From a virus: 64,000 nt of DNA. Under the pieces are notes generated by a model. It did not search any database. It saw only the letters and a list, made by a program, of their open reading frames with translations, and was not told the DNA's origin. The DNA lies in IMG/VR virus record IMGVR_UViG_3300032797_000632, positions 62,142 through 126,141 of that record, one strand, 5' to 3'. Below are positions 37,645 through 62,208 of the stretch, piece after piece (the first letter of the stretch is position 1; the number at the start of each line of letters is the position of its first letter). The position numbers and the translations under genes were made by a program.

Positions 37645-37724
37645 ACCATTCATCGCTTGACTATCGGGGAATGGTGGTGCATGCTACCATTAAGATTATT
37701 CGCCCAACCTGAAAGGAGGTGTCT

Positions 37725-39176
37725 ATGGCGAATCTGGTAAGAGACCACATCCAGGCGGGCTTCGGCCTGCTGTGGGTGCACACCTCGGAGCCCGACAGGG
37801 CTATCCGCGATCTCGGCAAGGAAATCAAATCCTTGGCCGCTGACAAGAAGCAAAATATCGAGATTGCGGAATGGGACTGCGTCAGCGGATTCAGGGACGA
37901 AAGCGGGGTCAAGCCGATGGAGGATCCCCTGATGCCCCTCAAGCGGTTCGACTCCATGCCGGACCGCTCCGTTCTTTTCCTCCACAATTATCACCGGTGC
38001 CTCGGAAGCCTCGATGCCGTCCAGACCTTCGCAAACCGGCTGGACGCCTGGCGGGGCAAGGGCAAGACGGTGATCGTCATCTCGCCGGTGATCAACCTGC
38101 CGGTGGAGATCGAGAAGCTCTGGACGATCATCGATTTCAAGCTCCCCGACAGGGAGAAGGTTCGGGAGGTCGTCGAGTACATCGCCGAGTCGGCGAAGCT
38201 CAAAAGCCCCCCGAAGGATCCGGAGCTCTCCACGATCGTGGAAAACGGCCTCGGGCTCACGCAGTGCGAGCTCGAGAACGCCCTCGCCTACTCCCTGATC
38301 CGGGCGGGGAAGTTCGACCCCAAAATCATCTCCGAAATGAAAAGCCAGATGGTCAAGAAATCCGGCATCCTCGAGTACGCCAAGTTCAACGAGAAGTTCG
38401 ACTCCCTCGCCGGGATGGACGCCATCAAAAAGTTCGCCCTCGCCACGGCCCTCCACGCCCTCTCGAGGGGGATTCTGATCGTCGGGGTGCCCGGGTGCGG
38501 GAAGTCGCACTTCGCCAAGGCCCTCGGCAACGAGATCGGCCTCCCGGTCCTGACCCTCGACTTCGGGCGGATCTTCGGGAGCTTCATCGGGGAGTCCGAG
38601 GGCAAGATGCGGGCGACCACCGACATGCTGGATGCGATGGCCCCCTGCGTCTGCTTCATCGACGAGATCGAGAAGGGCCTCGCCGGGTCGGAGAGCTCGG
38701 GGCGCCTCGACTCGGGGGTCACCTCCCGGGTCACCGGGGGCTTCCTCACCTGGCTCAACGACCACACGAGCCGGGTCTACATGGTGGCCTCCTGCAACGA
38801 CCTCGACTCCCTCCCCCCCCCGTTCCAGCGGGCGGAGCGGTGGGACGCCATCTTCTTCGTCGATCTGCCCTCGGAAAATGAGCGGATCGCCATCCTTGAA
38901 ATTTACCGGAAGCACTTCGAGATCAAGGACAAGAGCGTCCCGGACATGACCGACTTCTCCGGGGCGGAGATCAAAACCATGTGCCGGATCAGCAAGATGA
39001 TCGGAATCCCGCTCACCGAGGCGAGGCAGTATGTAATTCCCCTCTCCAGATCGATGGGCGAGAAGATAACCAAGCTTCGGAATTGGGCGGTGGACCGGGC
39101 CCTCATGGCCTCGACCGACGCCACGGTCCGCACGAGGGAGAAGAGGCGGATCGACATGAACCCCACCGCCAATTAG
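37725..39176 (+). CDS. Ycf46-like AAA+ ATPase
   Basis: Walker A GVPGCGKS, Walker B CFIDEIEKG, RWDAIFFVDLP; inactive N-terminal AAA half. Confidence 0.88.
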   Translation: MANLVRDHIQAGFGLLWVHTSEPDRAIRDLGKEIKSLAADKKQNIEIAEWDCVSGFRDESGVKPMEDPLMPLKRFDSMPDRSVLFLHNYHRCLGSLDAVQTFANRLDAWRGKGKTVIVISPVINLPVEIEKLWTIIDFKLPDREKVREVVEYIAESAKLKSPPKDPELSTIVENGLGLTQCELENALAYSLIRAGKFDPKIISEMKSQMVKKSGILEYAKFNEKFDSLAGMDAIKKFALATALHALSRGILIVGVPGCGKSHFAKALGNEIGLPVLTLDFGRIFGSFIGESEGKMRATTDMLDAMAPCVCFIDEIEKGLAGSESSGRLDSGVTSRVTGGFLTWLNDHTSRVYMVASCNDLDSLPPPFQRAERWDAIFFVDLPSENERIAILEIYRKHFEIKDKSVPDMTDFSGAEIKTMCRISKMIGIPLTEARQYVIPLSRSMGEKITKLRNWAVDRALMASTDATVRTREKRRIDMNPTAN

Positions 39177-43018: not shown

Positions 43019-43091
43019 GGACCCGTAGCTCAATTGGCGGAGCCACCGGCTCATAACCGGACGGGTGGAGGTTCGAATCCTCCCGGGTCCA
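43019..43091 (+). tRNA. tRNA with CAT anticodon (Ile2-like, otherwise elongator Met); CCA not encoded
   Basis: Acceptor GGACCCG/CGGGTCC, D arm GCTC/GAGC, loop CTCATAA, T loop TTCGAAT. Confidence 0.88.
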
Positions 43092-43111: not shown

Positions 43112-44362
43112 ATGATCACTATTCTGCATACGGGAGATTGGCATTACCGCGCCAAGTGGCTGGAGGAGATCCACAAGAACGCCTCGTTTGTGGCCGGGCA
43201 CGCCGGGGAGGCGGACATCGCCATCCTAGACGGGGACCTCTACGATGGCCCCATGCCCCACGACTCTGGGCCGGTGGCCCTGGCGATCGAGGCCGTCCAA
43301 GCGATGGCCAACCTAGCCCCGGTGCTGGCCATCAGGGGCACTTATACCCATGACCGGGGGCAAATGCACCTCCTGGGCAAGATCAGGGCAAACTGGCCGA
43401 TCCTGGTCGTGGACAAGCCCATTCTGGTCGCCCTTATTGATGGCGACCTGGTTCCGCTCCCCTTGGGGGCGGAAATACCCCGGGGTGCCTCGCTGGTGGT
43501 GGGATGCCTGCCGGAGCCCCCGCGCCTGCTGGAGAGGGAGCACGCAGACGGAATGGTGCAGGCCATCTGCTCCGGATTCCGGGCTGCGTCGCAGGGGTTT
43601 CCGTTCGTGGTGGCCGGCCACCTGGGGGTGACGGGCTCGACCCTCTCGAACCAGAGCCCGCTCGGGCAGTGGGTGTCCCGGGCGTGCCTCGAGTCGGCGG
43701 AGGCCCCGGTCCTGCTGGGGCACATCCACCACCCGCAGAAAATGGCGAATAGCCAGATCATTTATTGCGGGTCTCCGTCCATCCTGGATTTCGGGGAGGT
43801 CCACGAGCACGGGTTTTATATGCACACGATGGAGCACGGGGGAAATGGAGACGCCCCGGCCAAATGGTTCTCGTCCACATTTGTGGAAACCCCGCACCGG
43901 AGGGTCGTCGAGATCGGGTGGGAAACAAGGCCCAAGGAGAAGCCGGGCATCGGACCGCCGTACTATGTGAAAGGCGCCAAGGTGCAGAGCTCGTCTCCGA
44001 AGGCATGCACGAAGGAGGGGGAGCTGTTTTCCGCGGACCCGTCCGACATCGTCGATCTGATCTCCCGGGTCGACTGCCGGGACATGCTGGCCCGGGTCCG
44101 GGTCGGGATCGCCAGCCCGGATCCCGACCTTCGCCCGCGGATCGAGCGGGCCTTGCGGGAGGTCGGTGCCTACGACATCAAGGTGGACATCCTGCGGGAC
44201 GAGGAGGTCCATGTCCGGTTCGAGGATGTGGCCAAGGCCCGGAGTTTGCGGGACAAGATCGTGGCCGTCCGCCCGGAGACGGTTCCGGCGATTTTGGGAA
44301 AGGCCGAGCAACTCGAGACGATCCCGGAGGAAAAGCTGATGGAGGAGGTGGCAAATTTATAA
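43112..44362 (+). CDS. sbcD: SbcD/Mre11-like metallophosphoesterase nuclease
   Basis: ILHTGDWH, GDLYD, GTxTHD, GH, LGHIH, YCGSP...FGE. Confidence 0.88.
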   Translation: MITILHTGDWHYRAKWLEEIHKNASFVAGHAGEADIAILDGDLYDGPMPHDSGPVALAIEAVQAMANLAPVLAIRGTYTHDRGQMHLLGKIRANWPILVVDKPILVALIDGDLVPLPLGAEIPRGASLVVGCLPEPPRLLEREHADGMVQAICSGFRAASQGFPFVVAGHLGVTGSTLSNQSPLGQWVSRACLESAEAPVLLGHIHHPQKMANSQIIYCGSPSILDFGEVHEHGFYMHTMEHGGNGDAPAKWFSSTFVETPHRRVVEIGWETRPKEKPGIGPPYYVKGAKVQSSSPKACTKEGELFSADPSDIVDLISRVDCRDMLARVRVGIASPDPDLRPRIERALREVGAYDIKVDILRDEEVHVRFEDVAKARSLRDKIVAVRPETVPAILGKAEQLETIPEEKLMEEVANL

Positions 44363-44368
44363 AAATAT

Positions 44369-44432
44369 GGTGAGTTCAGGTGAGGTTCGGCGTGTTAGGG
44401 TCAAGTGAAGTTTGTTTTGGTCTGGTTTTTTG
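44369..44432 (+). ncRNA. Solo GGY-NN pentamer unit (degenerate) upstream of RAMP gene 1
   Basis: 12 in-phase pentamers, 7 of them canonical GGY-NN, ending GGTCT GGTTT TTT. Confidence 0.6.
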
Positions 44433-44474
44433 AATATGCACCATAGGTGGAGAGGAAAAAGAAAGGAGGAGAGA

Positions 44475-45053
44475 ATGGAATATTTGGCAAGATTGAGGTC
44501 GAGAGGACCATCGTCATTCTTGTTTGATGGCTGGAGAAAAGAGCTCCACAAAGAGATGAAAGATTTGAGGGGGGTCCGACTCGTTAAATGGCAGGAAGCC
44601 AACTGGCGGAGGTGGGCGATACTGAACGAGAAGGGAAAAGTCATCCTGCCGGCGAATATGTTCAAGCTCGCTTTTCATGAGGCATGCAGGCATTTACGGC
44701 GGGATCTGTCTTTTGTCAAGGGGAAAAAACAAGCAATTCGTATTATTGACCCCAAATATACCTCGACGATGGATTTCCGCGACTCCACCTTCTCCTGCGA
44801 TGTAAAACAACTGAAAATGTGGAATATGTGCATGTGCTGTATCTCGATGATAGACGGGGAAATTCCTGCCGGAAAACTGAGGCCGATACTCGAAAGATGG
44901 AAAACAGACATAAAAATATCCGATCCGCTCGGGAAACTGAAGACGCAGGAGATTGCGGACATGCTTAATTTCGCCGGAAGATTTGTCGGAGTGGGCAGTG
45001 GTCGGTGGCAGGGCATGGGTAGTTTCGAATTAGAGTTTATTAAAAGAATTTAA
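44475..45053 (+). CDS. Single-domain RAMP/Cas7-like protein 1 (Vipr-like)
   Basis: N-terminal strand YLARLRS, GKVILPANMFK, LRPILERW, Gly-rich loop AGRFVGVGSGRWQGMGSF; AGGAGG RBS. Confidence 0.75.
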   Translation: MEYLARLRSRGPSSFLFDGWRKELHKEMKDLRGVRLVKWQEANWRRWAILNEKGKVILPANMFKLAFHEACRHLRRDLSFVKGKKQAIRIIDPKYTSTMDFRDSTFSCDVKQLKMWNMCMCCISMIDGEIPAGKLRPILERWKTDIKISDPLGKLKTQEIADMLNFAGRFVGVGSGRWQGMGSFELEFIKRI

Positions 45054-45065
45054 CAGACCTTCTGT

Positions 45066-45125
45066 GGTTAGGTAAGGTACGGTATGGTAGTGCCTGATGA
45101 GGTGAGGTAAGTTTCGGTTTTGTTA
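45066..45125 (+). ncRNA. Solo GGY-NN pentamer unit upstream of RAMP gene 2
   Basis: 11 in-phase pentamers, 8 canonical, ending GGTTT TGTTAA. Confidence 0.65.
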
Positions 45126-45145
45126 ACCAAGAGAGGAGAACGAGC

Positions 45146-45715
45146 ATGAAAAAGTATCTGGTGAAATTGAAGTCGGTGACCGAGCTGGTGGCGAACACGC
45201 CCCAAAAGGAGATATTTGACGAGCTTAAGGCGTTGCCCAAGGACCAGCTCAACGAGTGGGAGGAGAATGAGAAGAACTGGCGGAGAAAGGCGGAGCGGGA
45301 TAAAAAGGGCAATGTCATATTGCCCCCGAGGTGGTTCAAGACCTCCTTTACCGACGCCTGCAAATACACGAGGATGGTTCCCCATTTCGCCACCAGCAAG
45401 AAGGAGACATACACGAGGTACTCCGATTCCTTGATCTTCTCGGACACTACCTTCCTCTGCAGCATGGAAAGCACGAAATACTACGGGGCGTTCGTCGGTG
45501 CCCAGGGCAAGAATAGCAAGACCAAGAGGTGGTGCGTGAGGCCGATGGTTGAGAAGTGGGAGACGGACCTGACCATCATCGATCCCTTCGGCAGAATGAA
45601 GATTGAGGAGCTTCAGGAGCTTCTCGAATACTCCGGGATGTTGCTCGGGGTGGGAGACGCCAGAAAGCTGAATTACGGAAGGTTCAAGGTGGTGTCCATC
45701 AAGGAGATCAAATAG
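45146..45715 (+). CDS. Single-domain RAMP/Cas7-like protein 2 (Vipr-like)
   Basis: YLVKLKSVTEL, GNVILPPRWFK, VRPMVEKW, Gly-rich loop SGMLLGVGDARKLNYGRF; paralogue of 44475. Confidence 0.8.
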   Translation: MKKYLVKLKSVTELVANTPQKEIFDELKALPKDQLNEWEENEKNWRRKAERDKKGNVILPPRWFKTSFTDACKYTRMVPHFATSKKETYTRYSDSLIFSDTTFLCSMESTKYYGAFVGAQGKNSKTKRWCVRPMVEKWETDLTIIDPFGRMKIEELQELLEYSGMLLGVGDARKLNYGRFKVVSIKEIK

Positions 45716-45729
45716 GGATTTGCAATTAA

Positions 45730-45774
45730 ATGGCCCGGGGGTGGGGTTTAATCCCATCCCCATCCCTGGGCCAT
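45730..45774 (+). other. 17-bp RNA hairpin between RAMP gene 2 and the accessory ORF
   Basis: ATGGCCCGGGGGTGGGG pairs with CCCCATCCCTGGGCCAT (2 G-U pairs), 11-nt loop, no U tract. Confidence 0.6.
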
Positions 45775-45799
45775 GCTCTAAAAAGAAGGAGGGGGAAAG

Positions 45800-46084
45800 A
45801 TGCCAGAGAAGAAAATCGCAACGACGAACAAAGAGGAGATCCAGCAACTTGGATTGAGGGCGATCGCAGAGTTCTTTCAGATTGACATCTCAAAGCTGTC
45901 GAACGAGGACCGCAAGTTCCTGCACGAGAAGGCCAAAATCGGAATGCAGTTCGAGCGGGAAATGAACCTTACCAAGCGGGCGGTTGAGATGAATTACCTG
46001 CGGGTCTTCAAGCTGTATGCGGCGGACAAAAAGGAGCTGAGGTCGTTAATAAAAAAGTCCTTGTCGCAATACCTGCCGAAGTGA
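45800..46084 (+). CDS. 94-aa helical accessory protein of the repeat cassette
   Basis: AAGGAGG RBS; stop codon abuts the array. Confidence 0.7.
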   Translation: MPEKKIATTNKEEIQQLGLRAIAEFFQIDISKLSNEDRKFLHEKAKIGMQFEREMNLTKRAVEMNYLRVFKLYAADKKELRSLIKKSLSQYLPK

Positions 46085-46086
46085 TC

Positions 46087-47011
46087 GGCGAGGTGAAGTA
46101 ATTGGGTTGGGTACGGCAAGGTTCGGTCAGGTCGGGTTTGGTTCGGCCAGGTCAGGTTTGGTCCGGCAAGGTTCGGTTTGGTTTTTATTTTAATGGGGGC
46201 CTGGCGAATTAGAATTTGATACTTGGGCGAGGTCAGGCGAGGTTGGGTTGGGTAAGGTCTGATAAGGTAAGGTTGGGTCAGGTAAGTTCTGGTTTGGTTT
46301 TTATTTAAACGGGGAGGGAGAACACAGGATTTGAATGTTTTAGGTGAGGTGATGTGTGGCGAGGCATCGTCAGGTCTGGTCAGGTATGGTAAGGTCTGGT
46401 TTTTATTATGATGGGGGAGGGACAAAAAATATAATTGCGGTGTTGAATTTCGGTGAGGTACGGTCCCGTCTGGTTCGGTACCGTTCGGTCCGGTATGGCA
46501 AGTTTTGGTTAGGTTGGGTAGGGTTTGGTGCGGCAAGGTTTGGTTTTTATTTAAACGGGAGCAGGGCTGGGAATGAAATTATATTTTCGGTGAGGTGCGG
46601 TATGGTTTGGTAGGGTGCGGTCTGGTCCGGCATAGTTTGGTAAGGCATGGTTTGGTTTTTATTTAAACGGGGGGAGGAAAATAGAATTTTAATATGCGGA
46701 AAAATCTGGCCTGGCCGGGTGGGGTACGGCATGGTTCGGTGCGGTTTGGTCGGGTTCGGCAAGGTTAGGTCGGGTGAGGTCTGGTCTGGTTTTATTTTAA
46801 GCGGGGGATAGAGAGGAAAGAAATTGCATTAAATAAGATCCGGTATGGTACGGTCTGGTCGGATCAGGTTGTCTTTTGGTTAGGTCAGGTTTGGTGTGGT
46901 ACGGTTTGATTTTTTATTTGAATGGGGATGAAAAAAAGTGTCGTTGCTATGCGGTAAGGCAGGGCAAGGTCAGGTTTGGTCCGGTGCGGTAAGGTTTGGT
47001 TTTTATTTAAA
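46087..47011 (+). repeat. Array of eight GGY-NN pentamer units (putative guide-RNA array)
   Basis: Units at 46105, 46226, 46343, 46452, 46589, 46708, 46842 and 46953 with 16, 15, 12, 19, 14, 17, about 14 and 10 pentamers; each ends in a GGTTTTTATTTAA-like tail, usually followed by a G run and an AT-rich linker. Confidence 0.92.
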
Positions 47012-47044
47012 GATGCACCATAGAGAACGAGGAGGAGAACGAGA

Positions 47045-49684
47045 ATGCTACCACTTGAATTGAGGGCAAAGGGATGGAAGGGCCTGCGGAACCTTGTGGG
47101 ATCCGGGGAGCTGGCGGTAGACCTCCGGGGGCTCGCCGGCATGATCGGCATCCAGGGGGACAACGGAATGGGCAAGACCACCTTTCTCGAGCTGATCCAG
47201 CCCCACCGGATGATGGTCTCCCGCGGGTCGGAGAGCCTGAAAAGCCAGATATTCATGGATGCTCACAAGGACCTGACCTTCCAGATCAAGGATAGGATTT
47301 ACCGATCCCTCACGCGGATCAAGGAGCGGACAGGCAAAACCGAGGCGTTCATTTGGGAGGATGGAACCCTGATGAACGAAAACGGGAACTGCGACATCCA
47401 CGACGAGATCGTTTCCCGGCTCCAGGGGACGCCCGAGATGTTTTTCGCCTCGGTGTTCTGCGCCCAAAAAGGGAACCGCTCCCGCCGGATCACGGAGCTG
47501 ACCAAGGGGGAGCGCAAGGGGCTGATCATCCAGTTTATGAACCTGGCCCAGCTCGAGGAGTGGCAGGCCACGGCCAAGGCCCTGCGGGATGTGATTGCCA
47601 CCAAGCGCCAGGAGGCGCAGAGGGAGGTCGAAGGCCTTCGTGCGAGGCTCCTGCCCGATCCCGGGGCGTTTGAAAAGGAGATGGAGAAGGTCAAATTCCA
47701 GATTCAGGACCTCCTGCTGCGGAAGGGGGAGATCGAGAGCTGGCTCGAGGTGGCTCAGGTGGCGGAGAAGGAGGCACTGGCCCGGGTGCGGGAAGAGGGG
47801 GAGAAGGACTCCCGCAAGCGGGCGAAGGGGGAGGAGATCGAGCGGATCGAGTCGAGGGTCGAAAAGGCCCGGGTGCGGATCAAGGATCTCGGCCTTGAGC
47901 AATCCCGGATCCGGGTGCAGGACTTGGCATCCGACCCGGAGGCGATCCGGAAGAAAATAAAGCAGGCCGAGATGGCGATCCAGGATGCGGAGCGTGCACA
48001 AGCCTTCGACGCCGGGGAGCTGAAGAAATACGAGGAAGCCCTCGAGGTGGCGAATGATCGGGCGAAGAAGGAACTGGAGATCGCCGGGGAGGAAAAGGGC
48101 ATCCGGGGAAGGATCGACTCCCAAAAGAAGTACCGCACCGAGATTCAGCAGACCTTGGGGATCGTGGACGGCCAGAAGGGGCTGGCAGAGAAGCTGGCGG
48201 ACCTAGCCCGGCAATCCGGGGAGGTGGAGGTCGATCTGGACGATGTCGATGGGAGGATCGTAGACCACGAGGGGTTGGTGAATGGCCTCGAGGAAAAGGC
48301 CCGGGAGGAGGCGAGGGTCGATCTGGAGAGGGAGTCCTTGACCGGCAGGGCCAAGGCCCTGTCCAAGCAGGCGGATATCCTCGGCCAACGGCCGGCGGAA
48401 TGCCGGATTGACGGGTGCGCCTTTATCAAGGGGGCACTGGATGCCTCGAAGGAAATATCCGAAATCAAAAAGCAGATCGAAGCCCTCCCGCAGGTGAGGG
48501 ACCGTGAATCAAGGCAGAGGGATGTCGAAACGGCTAAGGACATCGAGAAGAAAATCCGGGCGGAGCGGGACAGTCTGAAAAGCCGGCTCGTCGAGCTGGA
48601 GGCGGAATCGACCCGGGTGTCGGAGTCGATCAAACTGGCCGAACAGGCCACGGAGAGGATCAAGCAGATCGACGGGGATATCGCCCGGCTCGAAGAGGAG
48701 CTTCGGAACCTTCCCACCCCGGATTCGCAGCAGACGCAGAAGATGATCAACGAGGCGAAGGCGGGGGTGCAGCGGGAAAAGGAAAATCTTGATCGGGCCC
48801 GGGAACATGTCAAAAAGAACAATGACCGGAGGATCGAGGAGACGGAGCGCCTGCGGGTGGCGGAGCTGGCGCAGGAGCGGATCCGGTCCATCAGCGACAA
48901 AATCGCCTCGGAGGAGTCCGGCCTGTCCGCGGAGGAGGGGCTGCTCAAGGATCGCCGGGGCGAGTGGGAGGCGATCATCGTCGATCTGTCTTGGGCGAAA
49001 AAGCTGCAGGACGCCCAGGCCGACCTGAAAAAATGGCGGGACGGGCTCTCCACAAACCAGAGGGATGCGGAGGGGAAAAGGGTCTCGCTGGTGTCGATGG
49101 AAGGCCAACTCAAAGCTGACCGGGAGGTTCGGGCGGGGATCGAGTCCACGGACTCGAGGATCGCCATGCTGGGCCGGGAGGCCGGGGAGTGGGACCTACT
49201 CCAGACCCTGTGCGGGCGGGATCACCTGCAGGCTTATGAGATTGACGCCTCGGCGCCGATCATCACCGGGCTGGCCAACGACCTGCTCAAGACCACCTTC
49301 GGGGACCGTTTCGCCATCCGGTTCCAGACGCTCAAGGACGGCAAGGAGGTGTTTGATGTGCTGGTCTACGACCAGGAGATCGGGGAGGAGAAGGACATCC
49401 GGGACATCTCCGGGGGCGAGGAGGTGTGGATCCTCAAGGCCCTGCGCCTGGCGATGACCCTTTTGACAAAGGAGAGGAGCGGGAAAACCTACCACACGAT
49501 TTTCGGGGACGAGGAGGACGGCAAGCTGTCGATCCAGAACCGCATGGCCTACCTGCAGATGTACCGGAAAATGCTGGCCATCGGGGGGTTCACCTGCTGC
49601 TACCTCGTCAGCCATACCCCGGAGCTGACCGAAGCCTGCGACCACCGCCTGCGGTTCAGGGCGGGGGGAATTGATGTGGATTGA
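47045..49684 (+). CDS. sbcC: SbcC/Rad50-like SMC ATPase
   Basis: Walker A GDNGMGKT, Q loop, long coiled coil, Cys hook CRIDGC, ISGGE, IFGDEEDG, VSH. Confidence 0.9.
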   Translation: MLPLELRAKGWKGLRNLVGSGELAVDLRGLAGMIGIQGDNGMGKTTFLELIQPHRMMVSRGSESLKSQIFMDAHKDLTFQIKDRIYRSLTRIKERTGKTEAFIWEDGTLMNENGNCDIHDEIVSRLQGTPEMFFASVFCAQKGNRSRRITELTKGERKGLIIQFMNLAQLEEWQATAKALRDVIATKRQEAQREVEGLRARLLPDPGAFEKEMEKVKFQIQDLLLRKGEIESWLEVAQVAEKEALARVREEGEKDSRKRAKGEEIERIESRVEKARVRIKDLGLEQSRIRVQDLASDPEAIRKKIKQAEMAIQDAERAQAFDAGELKKYEEALEVANDRAKKELEIAGEEKGIRGRIDSQKKYRTEIQQTLGIVDGQKGLAEKLADLARQSGEVEVDLDDVDGRIVDHEGLVNGLEEKAREEARVDLERESLTGRAKALSKQADILGQRPAECRIDGCAFIKGALDASKEISEIKKQIEALPQVRDRESRQRDVETAKDIEKKIRAERDSLKSRLVELEAESTRVSESIKLAEQATERIKQIDGDIARLEEELRNLPTPDSQQTQKMINEAKAGVQREKENLDRAREHVKKNNDRRIEETERLRVAELAQERIRSISDKIASEESGLSAEEGLLKDRRGEWEAIIVDLSWAKKLQDAQADLKKWRDGLSTNQRDAEGKRVSLVSMEGQLKADREVRAGIESTDSRIAMLGREAGEWDLLQTLCGRDHLQAYEIDASAPIITGLANDLLKTTFGDRFAIRFQTLKDGKEVFDVLVYDQEIGEEKDIRDISGGEEVWILKALRLAMTLLTKERSGKTYHTIFGDEEDGKLSIQNRMAYLQMYRKMLAIGGFTCCYLVSHTPELTEACDHRLRFRAGGIDVD

Positions 49685-54467: not shown

Positions 54468-54543
54468 GCCGAAATAGCTCAGACGGGAGAGCGGGTGACC
54501 CGTATTCACCAGGCCGGGGGTTCGCCCCCCCCTTTCGGCTCCA
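54468..54543 (+). tRNA. tRNA-Thr(CGT), atypical loops, CCA encoded
   Basis: 76-nt cloverleaf: GCCGAAA/TTTCGGC, GCTC/GAGC, GGTGA/TCACC with loop CCCGTAT, GGGGG/CCCCC with loop TTCGCCC, then T-CCA. Confidence 0.8.
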
Positions 54544-61641: not shown

Positions 61642-62208
61642 ATGAGCATGCCATTCCAGAAGAAAAGACCCGCAGAGATTTGCCACGAATGTGGAAAGCC
61701 GATCCAGGGGGAGCCGGTATACCTGCCCGTCCATCGCACGGGTGACCCCTTTGAGCCCTTCTGTAAGGAGTGTGAGGGGAACGCCCGCGGGGTGATGGAC
61801 GATGATGGCCCTGGGGGACGGAGGAGGTTGTTGGAGGAGATCCGCCCGGAGTGGGAGCACTTGTCCTCCCGGAGAATGAGGGCGAAGCGGATCGTCTTTG
61901 GGGACGAGGGGGAGGAGCCCCGTGGGGTAGCCGGCAAGGCCCGGGAGGTTCGGGAGGCGTTGACAAAAAGGTCAACAGGAAAAAGCGGGGCGGAGATCCC
62001 GGCCAACCTCGAGTACGCCTTCTGCGACGACTGGTTCATCTACGCACAGGACCCGGACAGCGACGACCTGTACTTTGTGAGCACCGAGCTTTGGCCGGAG
62101 TGGGCGGACTATACCGAGGCGCAGATGGACGAGGAAAAGGCCGTCGAGAAGTACATGCTTCCGGTGGCCAAGAAGAAATGGGAAACGCTTCCCTGGGAGA
62201 AGGCCTGA
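61642..62208 (+). CDS. Zinc-ribbon hypothetical protein
   Basis: CHECG...CKEC; GGAGG RBS. Confidence 0.55.
   Translation: MSMPFQKKRPAEICHECGKPIQGEPVYLPVHRTGDPFEPFCKECEGNARGVMDDDGPGGRRRLLEEIRPEWEHLSSRRMRAKRIVFGDEGEEPRGVAGKAREVREALTKRSTGKSGAEIPANLEYAFCDDWFIYAQDPDSDDLYFVSTELWPEWADYTEAQMDEEKAVEKYMLPVAKKKWETLPWEKA

Follow-up and report, generated by a model that had tools for sequence, protein, structure and literature searches.

A probable VIPR system with ten putative guide RNA genes and a second, divergent Vipr in a 126-kb phage genome

Systems termed Viral Interference Programmable Repeat (VIPR) were reported only in 2026 (four bioRxiv preprints), and few of them have been studied so far. As described in the main text of the first report, a VIPR system combines a ~20-kDa ancestral RAMP protein (Vipr) and a vap accessory gene with vrRNAs, which consist of 9–16 YNNGG repeats capped by an invariable 3′ tail; such systems (667 in 664 loci) reside mostly in phages and silence double-stranded DNA through the NN positions, skipping one base per repeat, with competing phages and satellites as targets and no self-targets (10.64898/2026.04.26.720920). 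Cryo-electron microscopy resolved one protomer per repeat, with NN presented; in the Vipr of SUSP1, the first repeat base (G1) is read by H17 and D177 and the second (G2) by R138 of the thumb and W178 of the G-loop, Y3 sits in a pocket that includes R179, and substitution of the G-loop Asp by Ala abolishes silencing (10.64898/2026.04.26.720927). A survey with a genomic language model further describes the non-canonical repeats GAC, CAC, WGT and TGH beside Vipr-like proteins; the words GTT and thumb are absent from its main text (10.64898/2026.10.21.760802). Here we analysed a 64,000-nucleotide (nt) window that forms the latter half of a virus recorded as one contig of 126,141 bp (IMG/VR record IMGVR_UViG_3300032797_000632, positions 62,142–126,141), and found a cassette at 44363–47044 that is very probably a VIPR system of this phage.

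The cassette spans 2,682 bp, has every part on the + strand and is ordered vr1, viprA, vr2, viprB, a 94-amino-acid open reading frame (ORF) and vr3 to vr10—that is, eight putative vrRNA genes lie 3′ of the vap-like gene and one lies 5′ of each vipr gene. We base the assignment on a match of the Vipr-B family profile to a known Vipr, a predicted RAMP fold, pentamer tracts on the same strand beside homologues and the absence of any nuclease gene within the cassette. An earlier note, made from the letters alone, had likened the locus to a VIPR architecture; this architecture is indeed published (10.64898/2026.04.26.720920), and the locus fits it as far as the main text describes it. The features of the cassette are as follows.

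44369..44428 (+): vr1, 12 pentamers, 7 of them GGY (deviants GTT three times and AGT twice); with tail and ATGCACCATAG to 44446
44475..45053 (+): viprA, divergent Vipr paralogue, 192 amino acids, predicted RAMP fold
45066..45120 (+): vr2, 11 in-register pentamers, 8 of them GGY; immediately 5′ of viprB
45146..45715 (+): viprB, putative canonical Vipr, 189 amino acids
45800..46084 (+): vap-like accessory gene, 94 amino acids, helical and without a known family; in relatives, accompanies vipr in synteny
46105..46184 (+): vr3, 16 of 16 pentamers GGY; with tail to 46199; possible 5′ extension from ~46087, 3 nt out of register
46226..46300 (+): vr4, 15 pentamers; with tail to 46315
46343..46402 (+): vr5, 12 pentamers; with tail to 46417
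46452..46546 (+): vr6, 19 pentamers; with tail to 46561
46589..46658 (+): vr7, 14 pentamers; with tail to 46673
46708..46792 (+): vr8, 17 of 17 pentamers GGY; with tail to 46807
46842..46907 (+): vr9, 6 + 6 pentamers, the register slipping by one base at 46872–46877; with tail to 46925
46953..47002 (+): vr10, 10 of 10 pentamers GGY; with tail and the second copy of ATGCACCATAG to 47023

The two proteins of about 190 residues that the earlier note had singled out as RAMP paralogues are related to each other (33% identity, E 2e-34), and both are confidently modelled (AlphaFold2 pLDDT, a per-residue confidence score, 93.2 for Vipr-B and 88.6 for Vipr-A). Structural comparison bore out the proposed fold: VIA-align gave Z scores of 11.6 (Vipr-B) and 10.9 (Vipr-A) to Csm3 (6ae2_B), with CRISPR RAMPs in all of the top 29 rows, and Foldseek matched the two Viprs to type VII Cas7 and Csm3 with E values of ~5e-7 and 2e-6. 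The models thus predict that both proteins fold as Cas7/Csm3-like RAMPs; BFVD held a few viral RAMP-like look-alikes. A family profile built from Vipr-B and its homologues (34 sequences) had PDB entry 36pp_D, ‘SUSP1 Vipr protein’, as its sole significant match (E 6.5e-10), and the Vipr-B sequence alone had the same top match (E 0.022). In these alignments, R132-P133 of Vipr-B corresponds to R138-P139 of the SUSP1 thumb and G168-V-G-D171-A-R173 to the SUSP1 G-loop G174-V-G-D177-W178-R179, such that the SUSP1 contact residues R138, D177 and R179 are matched by R132, D171 and R173. By homology and by the architecture of its locus, Vipr-B belongs to the Vipr RAMP family. Pfam, NCBIfam and PADLOC returned nothing significant for the three cassette proteins, PHROGs assigned both Viprs to phrog_4652 (unknown function), and none of the 54 Vipr-B homologues in a collection of 5.8 billion proteins has a Pfam domain. 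The 94-residue product of the ORF at 45800–46084, which had also been noticed from the sequence, found no sequence match in PDB and only weak helical look-alikes in the ESM Atlas.

The ten units consist of 10–19 in-register pentamers each, on the + strand only. The first three positions are nearly constant and the last two nearly random (entropies of 0.41, 0.41, 0.58, 1.96 and 1.88 bits from position 1 to 5), with all 16 NN dinucleotides represented. The earlier description of ten units with a fixed GGY and freely varying NN therefore holds for the number of units and for NN, but GGY occurs in only 121 of the 138 in-register pentamers (the others being mostly GTT, NGT or GAT, with a base other than G at position 1 in only eight), and the last two pentamers are constant (GGTTT GGTTT) in seven of the ten units, where they form part of a conserved tail. 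This tail, GGTTTGGTTTTT followed by an A/T-rich stretch and a G run, lies 3′ of every unit, identical in seven of the ten and as close variants in the others; at the other end, the first pentamer is often GGTGA. Genome-wide (126 kb), the + strand has 11 strict GGY tracts with at least five hits, always inside the cassette, and the − strand has none, which indicates that the tracts exceed chance; even four-hit GGY tracts number only three outside the cassette.

Further components that would point to CRISPR–Cas were sought in the window. cas1/cas2, cas5, cas6, cas10, a large subunit and a repeat–spacer array were not found, and the locus does not qualify as a class 1 CRISPR–Cas system on this account; Tandem Repeats Finder detected no CRISPR-like array. 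A PADLOC scan of 62 ORFs yielded no cas match apart from a TnpB/Cas12f-like ORF, which is encoded 43 kb from the cassette. This ORF (379 amino acids, 787–1926, − strand) matches PADLOC Cas12f models (E 3.5e-55) and the Pfam entries OrfB_IS605, Cas12f1-like TNB domain and HTH_OrfB_IS605, overlaps a 370-amino-acid ORF on the opposite strand and represents a second relative of RNA-guided nucleases in the phage, unrelated to the cassette.

Compared with the VIPR systems of SUSP1 and of a Pseudomonas fulva prophage (type II), the locus shares a small RAMP with an RRM core, thumb and G-loop; GGY/NN pentamer RNAs (here predicted) of ~10–19 units with a constant 3′ tail; vrRNAs placed upstream and in a downstream array; a small accessory gene; and a phage genome with neither cas genes nor a self-target. 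It differs in that its 94-amino-acid accessory protein has no detectable family and in its second, divergent vipr gene, and differs from SUSP1 in having ten vrRNAs rather than four and, in Vipr-B, an Ala rather than a Trp after the G-loop Asp. The likeness to the Cas7 family (Csm3, Cmr4 and type VII Cas7) lies in the fold (Z 10.9–11.6; root-mean-square deviation 2.7–2.8 over 142–144 residues) and in a G-rich loop and thumb that flip guide-RNA bases at regular intervals. Unlike in the Cas7 family, where the period is 6 nt and a single base is flipped, each period here comprises 5 nt, of which three bases would be sequestered, and the guide would be read discontinuously; Vipr also lacks the Cas7 insertions, and no CRISPR array, cas1, cas2, cas5, cas6, cas10 or large subunit accompanies it. 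The locus adds a well-defined member with ten guides to the known VIPR systems.

To place the cassette among its relatives, we assembled a set of 66 related loci, of which IMG/VR supplied 5 and metagenomes 61; four pairs among them have identical vipr DNA. A homologue of the 94-amino-acid ORF (54% identical in locus L001) lies 3′ of vipr in 42 of the 47 loci that have at least 300 nt downstream. With a strict GGY motif, many relatives seemed to be free of tracts, and reading them revealed other constant triplets; tracts were therefore scored as at least seven hits to G[GTA]Y-NN. By this measure, 44 of the 66 loci carry tracts on the vipr strand and none (0/66) on the other strand, including a same-strand tract in every locus with at least 600 nt downstream (32/32). 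The earlier note had counted homologues without adjacent tracts as grounds for rejecting its reading, and this outcome did not occur. Tracts of the relatives have a median length of 12 pentamers (range 7–41, n = 134), and 8 of the 43 loci that have 300 nt or more of upstream sequence carry an upstream tract. The clade was found here only in metagenomic phage sequence: tblastn gave no match in 50,697 GenBank phage records, and a profile search of genome_contigs, which covers each prokaryote species by one genome, recovered no locus.

The constant triplets covary with the protein. In the 41 loci that have a tract together with a recognisable thumb and G-loop motif (the remaining 25 of 66 being omitted and duplicates included), the base at repeat position 2 follows the thumb residue that precedes the invariant Pro and the G-loop residue that follows the Asp:

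Thumb Arg-Pro, 27 loci: G in 838 of 987 units (T 90, A 59)
Thumb Tyr/Phe-Pro with G-loop Asp-Phe, 10 loci: T in 476 of 484 units
Thumb His-Pro with G-loop Asp-Gln, 4 loci: A 97, T 51, G 16 (A/T in 148 of 164 units)

Examples of variant loci are L015 (1110–1292), L023, L051 and L056 (3060–3170). Each variant group is probably a single clade, and the data therefore reflect about two independent changes, not 14. The two covarying protein positions are those that contact G2 in the reported SUSP1 structure (10.64898/2026.04.26.720927), and the covariation, a comparison of sequences, thus supports the published binding mode. Like arrays in the genomic language model survey, relatives of this locus depart from the canonical repeat, using GTT-NN or GWT-NN instead of GGY-NN; unlike those arrays, the window itself is canonical GGY (10.64898/2026.10.21.760802). 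If the code holds, it would open a rational way towards orthogonal VIPR scaffolds and lend independent comparative support to the structural model.

By analogy with the SUSP1 work, each vrRNA would be made as a ~70–120-nt RNA along which Vipr-B protomers would polymerise, one per pentamer, with the thumb Arg and the G-loop Asp and Arg keeping the GGY bases flipped out. NN would then pair with double-stranded DNA, one base being skipped per repeat, and binding may silence a competing phage, satellite or prophage at the level of transcription. The arrangement of one subunit on each GGY presenting NN, deduced in the earlier note, is the same as that reported from cryo-EM (10.64898/2026.04.26.720927).

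Some results weigh against the assignment to VIPR. Sequence identity to SUSP1 Vipr is recognisable only by profile and is confined to the C-terminal half (profile positions 99–185). The tail is short and A/T-rich with no predicted pseudoknot, unlike that of the SUSP1 clade, and six tails folded alone with pseudoknots left out gave non-significant z scores of −0.5 to −1.6. Neither a sigma-70-type promoter nor a convincing terminator was found in the cassette, and the target searches given below established no natural target. An Rfam scan of the cassette was also empty, even at E ≤ 1, which speaks against a hammerhead-type processing element of a known family. The missing promoter and terminator consensus would also fit pentamer tracts that act at the DNA level, for example as protein-binding iterons or curved DNA, with the RAMP proteins having another substrate. 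We consider this highly improbable given the strict strand asymmetry (no tract on the other strand in any of the 66 loci), the two variable and three fixed positions per unit that match the published RNA structure, the covariation of the fixed triplet with RNA-contact residues of Vipr, and the small-RNA sequencing and pull-downs published for homologous systems (10.64898/2026.04.26.720920).

Vipr-A sets the locus apart, as none of the 66 related loci has a second vipr gene. Its tie to Vipr consists only of the paralogy with Vipr-B (E 2e-34) and the fold, and the earlier treatment of both Viprs as equivalent working subunits is not supported. Vipr-A keeps the scaffold, the G-loop glycines, R177 and the thumb R136-P137, and has lost the G-loop Asp (Ser175, giving GVGSGR), the Arg of the GRF motif (Ser183), the PHFATSK motif and basic thumb residues. 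Overall, it retains 23 of 43 family-conserved positions, compared with 33–43 in 30 of the 32 other sequences and 25 in the remaining one. Such losses may mark a decaying, functionless duplicate or acquisition, which we regard as a tentative explanation: the missing Asp is the residue whose replacement by Ala abolishes silencing in SUSP1 (10.64898/2026.04.26.720927), and the terminal branch of Vipr-A in a quick tree is 2.09, against a median of 0.54. However, viprA has an uninterrupted reading frame, only two loops of the model lack confidence, the Asp is also missing in a few distant family members (GIGAGR and GTGNGR), and the same Vipr-A protein occurs on at least two further contigs.

A different role would be that of a specialised subunit, for instance a cap or a nucleator that has ceased to read G1, which co-assembles with Vipr-B on the same vrRNAs much as Cas5 or Cas6 stands beside Cas7 in class 1 CRISPR effectors. 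This would be in keeping with an intact ORF with a strong ribosome-binding site (RBS) and a confident RAMP fold, with the position of viprA directly 5′ of viprB in the same orientation, and with the pattern of retention, in which the scaffold, G-loop glycines, R177 and R136-P137 persist and the position-1-reading residues and much of the basic thumb are gone. If true, the locus would represent a naturally occurring VIPR effector with two RAMPs. It is nonetheless unlikely, given that the clade works without a second Vipr (0/66 related loci) and that the base composition of viprA argues against long co-evolution in this genome: GC content at third codon positions (GC3) is 0.56 in viprA, compared with 0.81 in viprB, 0.75 in vap and 0.83–0.90 in phage genes.

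The codon usage of viprA is foreign to the phage genome, and this GC3 difference speaks for a separate, more recent origin or for weak selection; a separate, lower-GC origin is probable. Two VIPR modules could accordingly lie side by side, [vr1 + viprA] having been captured from a lower-GC phage and [vr2 + viprB + vap + vr3–vr10] being long resident, each Vipr building its own filaments with Vipr-A as a second, orthogonal effector. We regard this arrangement, too, as a tentative explanation. Besides the GC3 values, an exhaustive search of 1.8 billion representatives is consistent with it, in which Vipr-A had no close relative beyond its own cluster (the same protein on two or three contigs) and otherwise reached at most 31% identity over most of its length. 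An upstream vrRNA with vipr also recurs (the 8 of 43 loci given above), and the published 667 systems in 664 loci imply that loci with two systems exist (10.64898/2026.04.26.720920). On the other hand, an RNA class particular to Vipr-A is not apparent: the GGY constant part is common to the ten units, their tails are essentially alike, the tail and flank of vr1 repeat those of vr10, and a base other than G opens only 8 of 138 pentamers. Moreover, Vipr-A does not group with another clade in the quick tree, which leaves it unresolved in a polytomy that includes Vipr-B and the nearest homologues of Vipr-B. As a working view, we take Vipr-B to be the main effector of the VIPR system and Vipr-A to be a second effector that recognises repeat position 1 differently, or else a copy in decay. 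The second, divergent Vipr provides a test case for how RAMP duplication might begin in VIPR.

Possible targets were searched for by matching the NN positions under the one-base-skip rule and were judged against shuffled-guide nulls. No self-target above these nulls was found in the 126 kb of the phage, and no target in the related loci (42 kb, then 222 kb); conversely, 118 guides of the relatives gave nothing on this genome above shuffled-guide levels borrowed from similar-length guides in other scans. Six exact 9-unit seeds matched 3, 0, 2, 0, 16 and 3 loci in the IMG/VR viral_contigs, corresponding to 0–2 independent matches each after collapsing identical or homologous sites, which by a rough estimate is of the order expected by chance. 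Beyond the seed, agreement was at the level of chance, with vr4 as a partial exception. Its 16 matches (L072–L087) all fall on a conserved motif, QEWWKL[KN]NW, near the N terminus of a portal protein (phrog_156, E 7e-6), in contigs with a GC content of 56–64%, a single one having 41%. At this site, which is in frame, the skipped base falls on the wobble position, and the best site agrees at 23 of 26 core positions and was reached through an 18-position seed. Against five whole phage records that carry the vr4 site (G001–G005), only vr4 scored among nine guides (vr1–vr8 and vr10; vr9 was omitted for its register slip), and a 10-unit vr4 seed found nothing in genome_contigs. Because an 18-position seed found the site and the eight other guides do not converge on these phages, we keep this portal-gene sequence match as a lead only—a candidate, unproven target that may have arisen by chance. 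These searches established no natural target. The extra divergent Vipr, the recognition code and the candidate portal target go beyond the main text of the first VIPR report (10.64898/2026.04.26.720920); its supplements may already include the clade, two-Vipr loci or the GTT variant.

The record that carries the cassette is classed as virus, with a baseplate wedge, SbcCD-like genes and tRNAs as phage signs. GC content falls to 0.49 in the cassette from 0.60–0.67 in its flanks, and the borders are formed by two genes assigned through PHROGs:

43112..44362 (+): SbcD-like nuclease subunit of phage, left border of the cassette
47045..49684 (+): SbcC-like ATPase of phage, right border of the cassette

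No relative of the SbcD-like protein was found in viral_contigs. Two pairs of short direct repeats connect parts of the cassette. The first pair lies 3′ of vr1 (44426–44446) and 3′ of vr10 (47003–47023), and the 11-nt motif ATGCACCATAG is present at both places; the second (45133–45148 and 47032–47047) repeats the RBS and start codon of viprB at the SbcC-like gene. As these repeats tie the junctions between vrRNAs and leaders together, they suggest that the cassette was assembled or rearranged via recombination at vrRNA–leader junctions. Elsewhere in the window, an AAA ATPase at 37719–39176 (+) matches PADLOC IetA models (E 6.5e-17) and phrog_8638 (E 5e-84), a tRNA-Met (CAT) at 43019–43091 lies immediately 5′ of the SbcD-like gene, and a tRNA-Thr (CGT) is located at 54468–54543.

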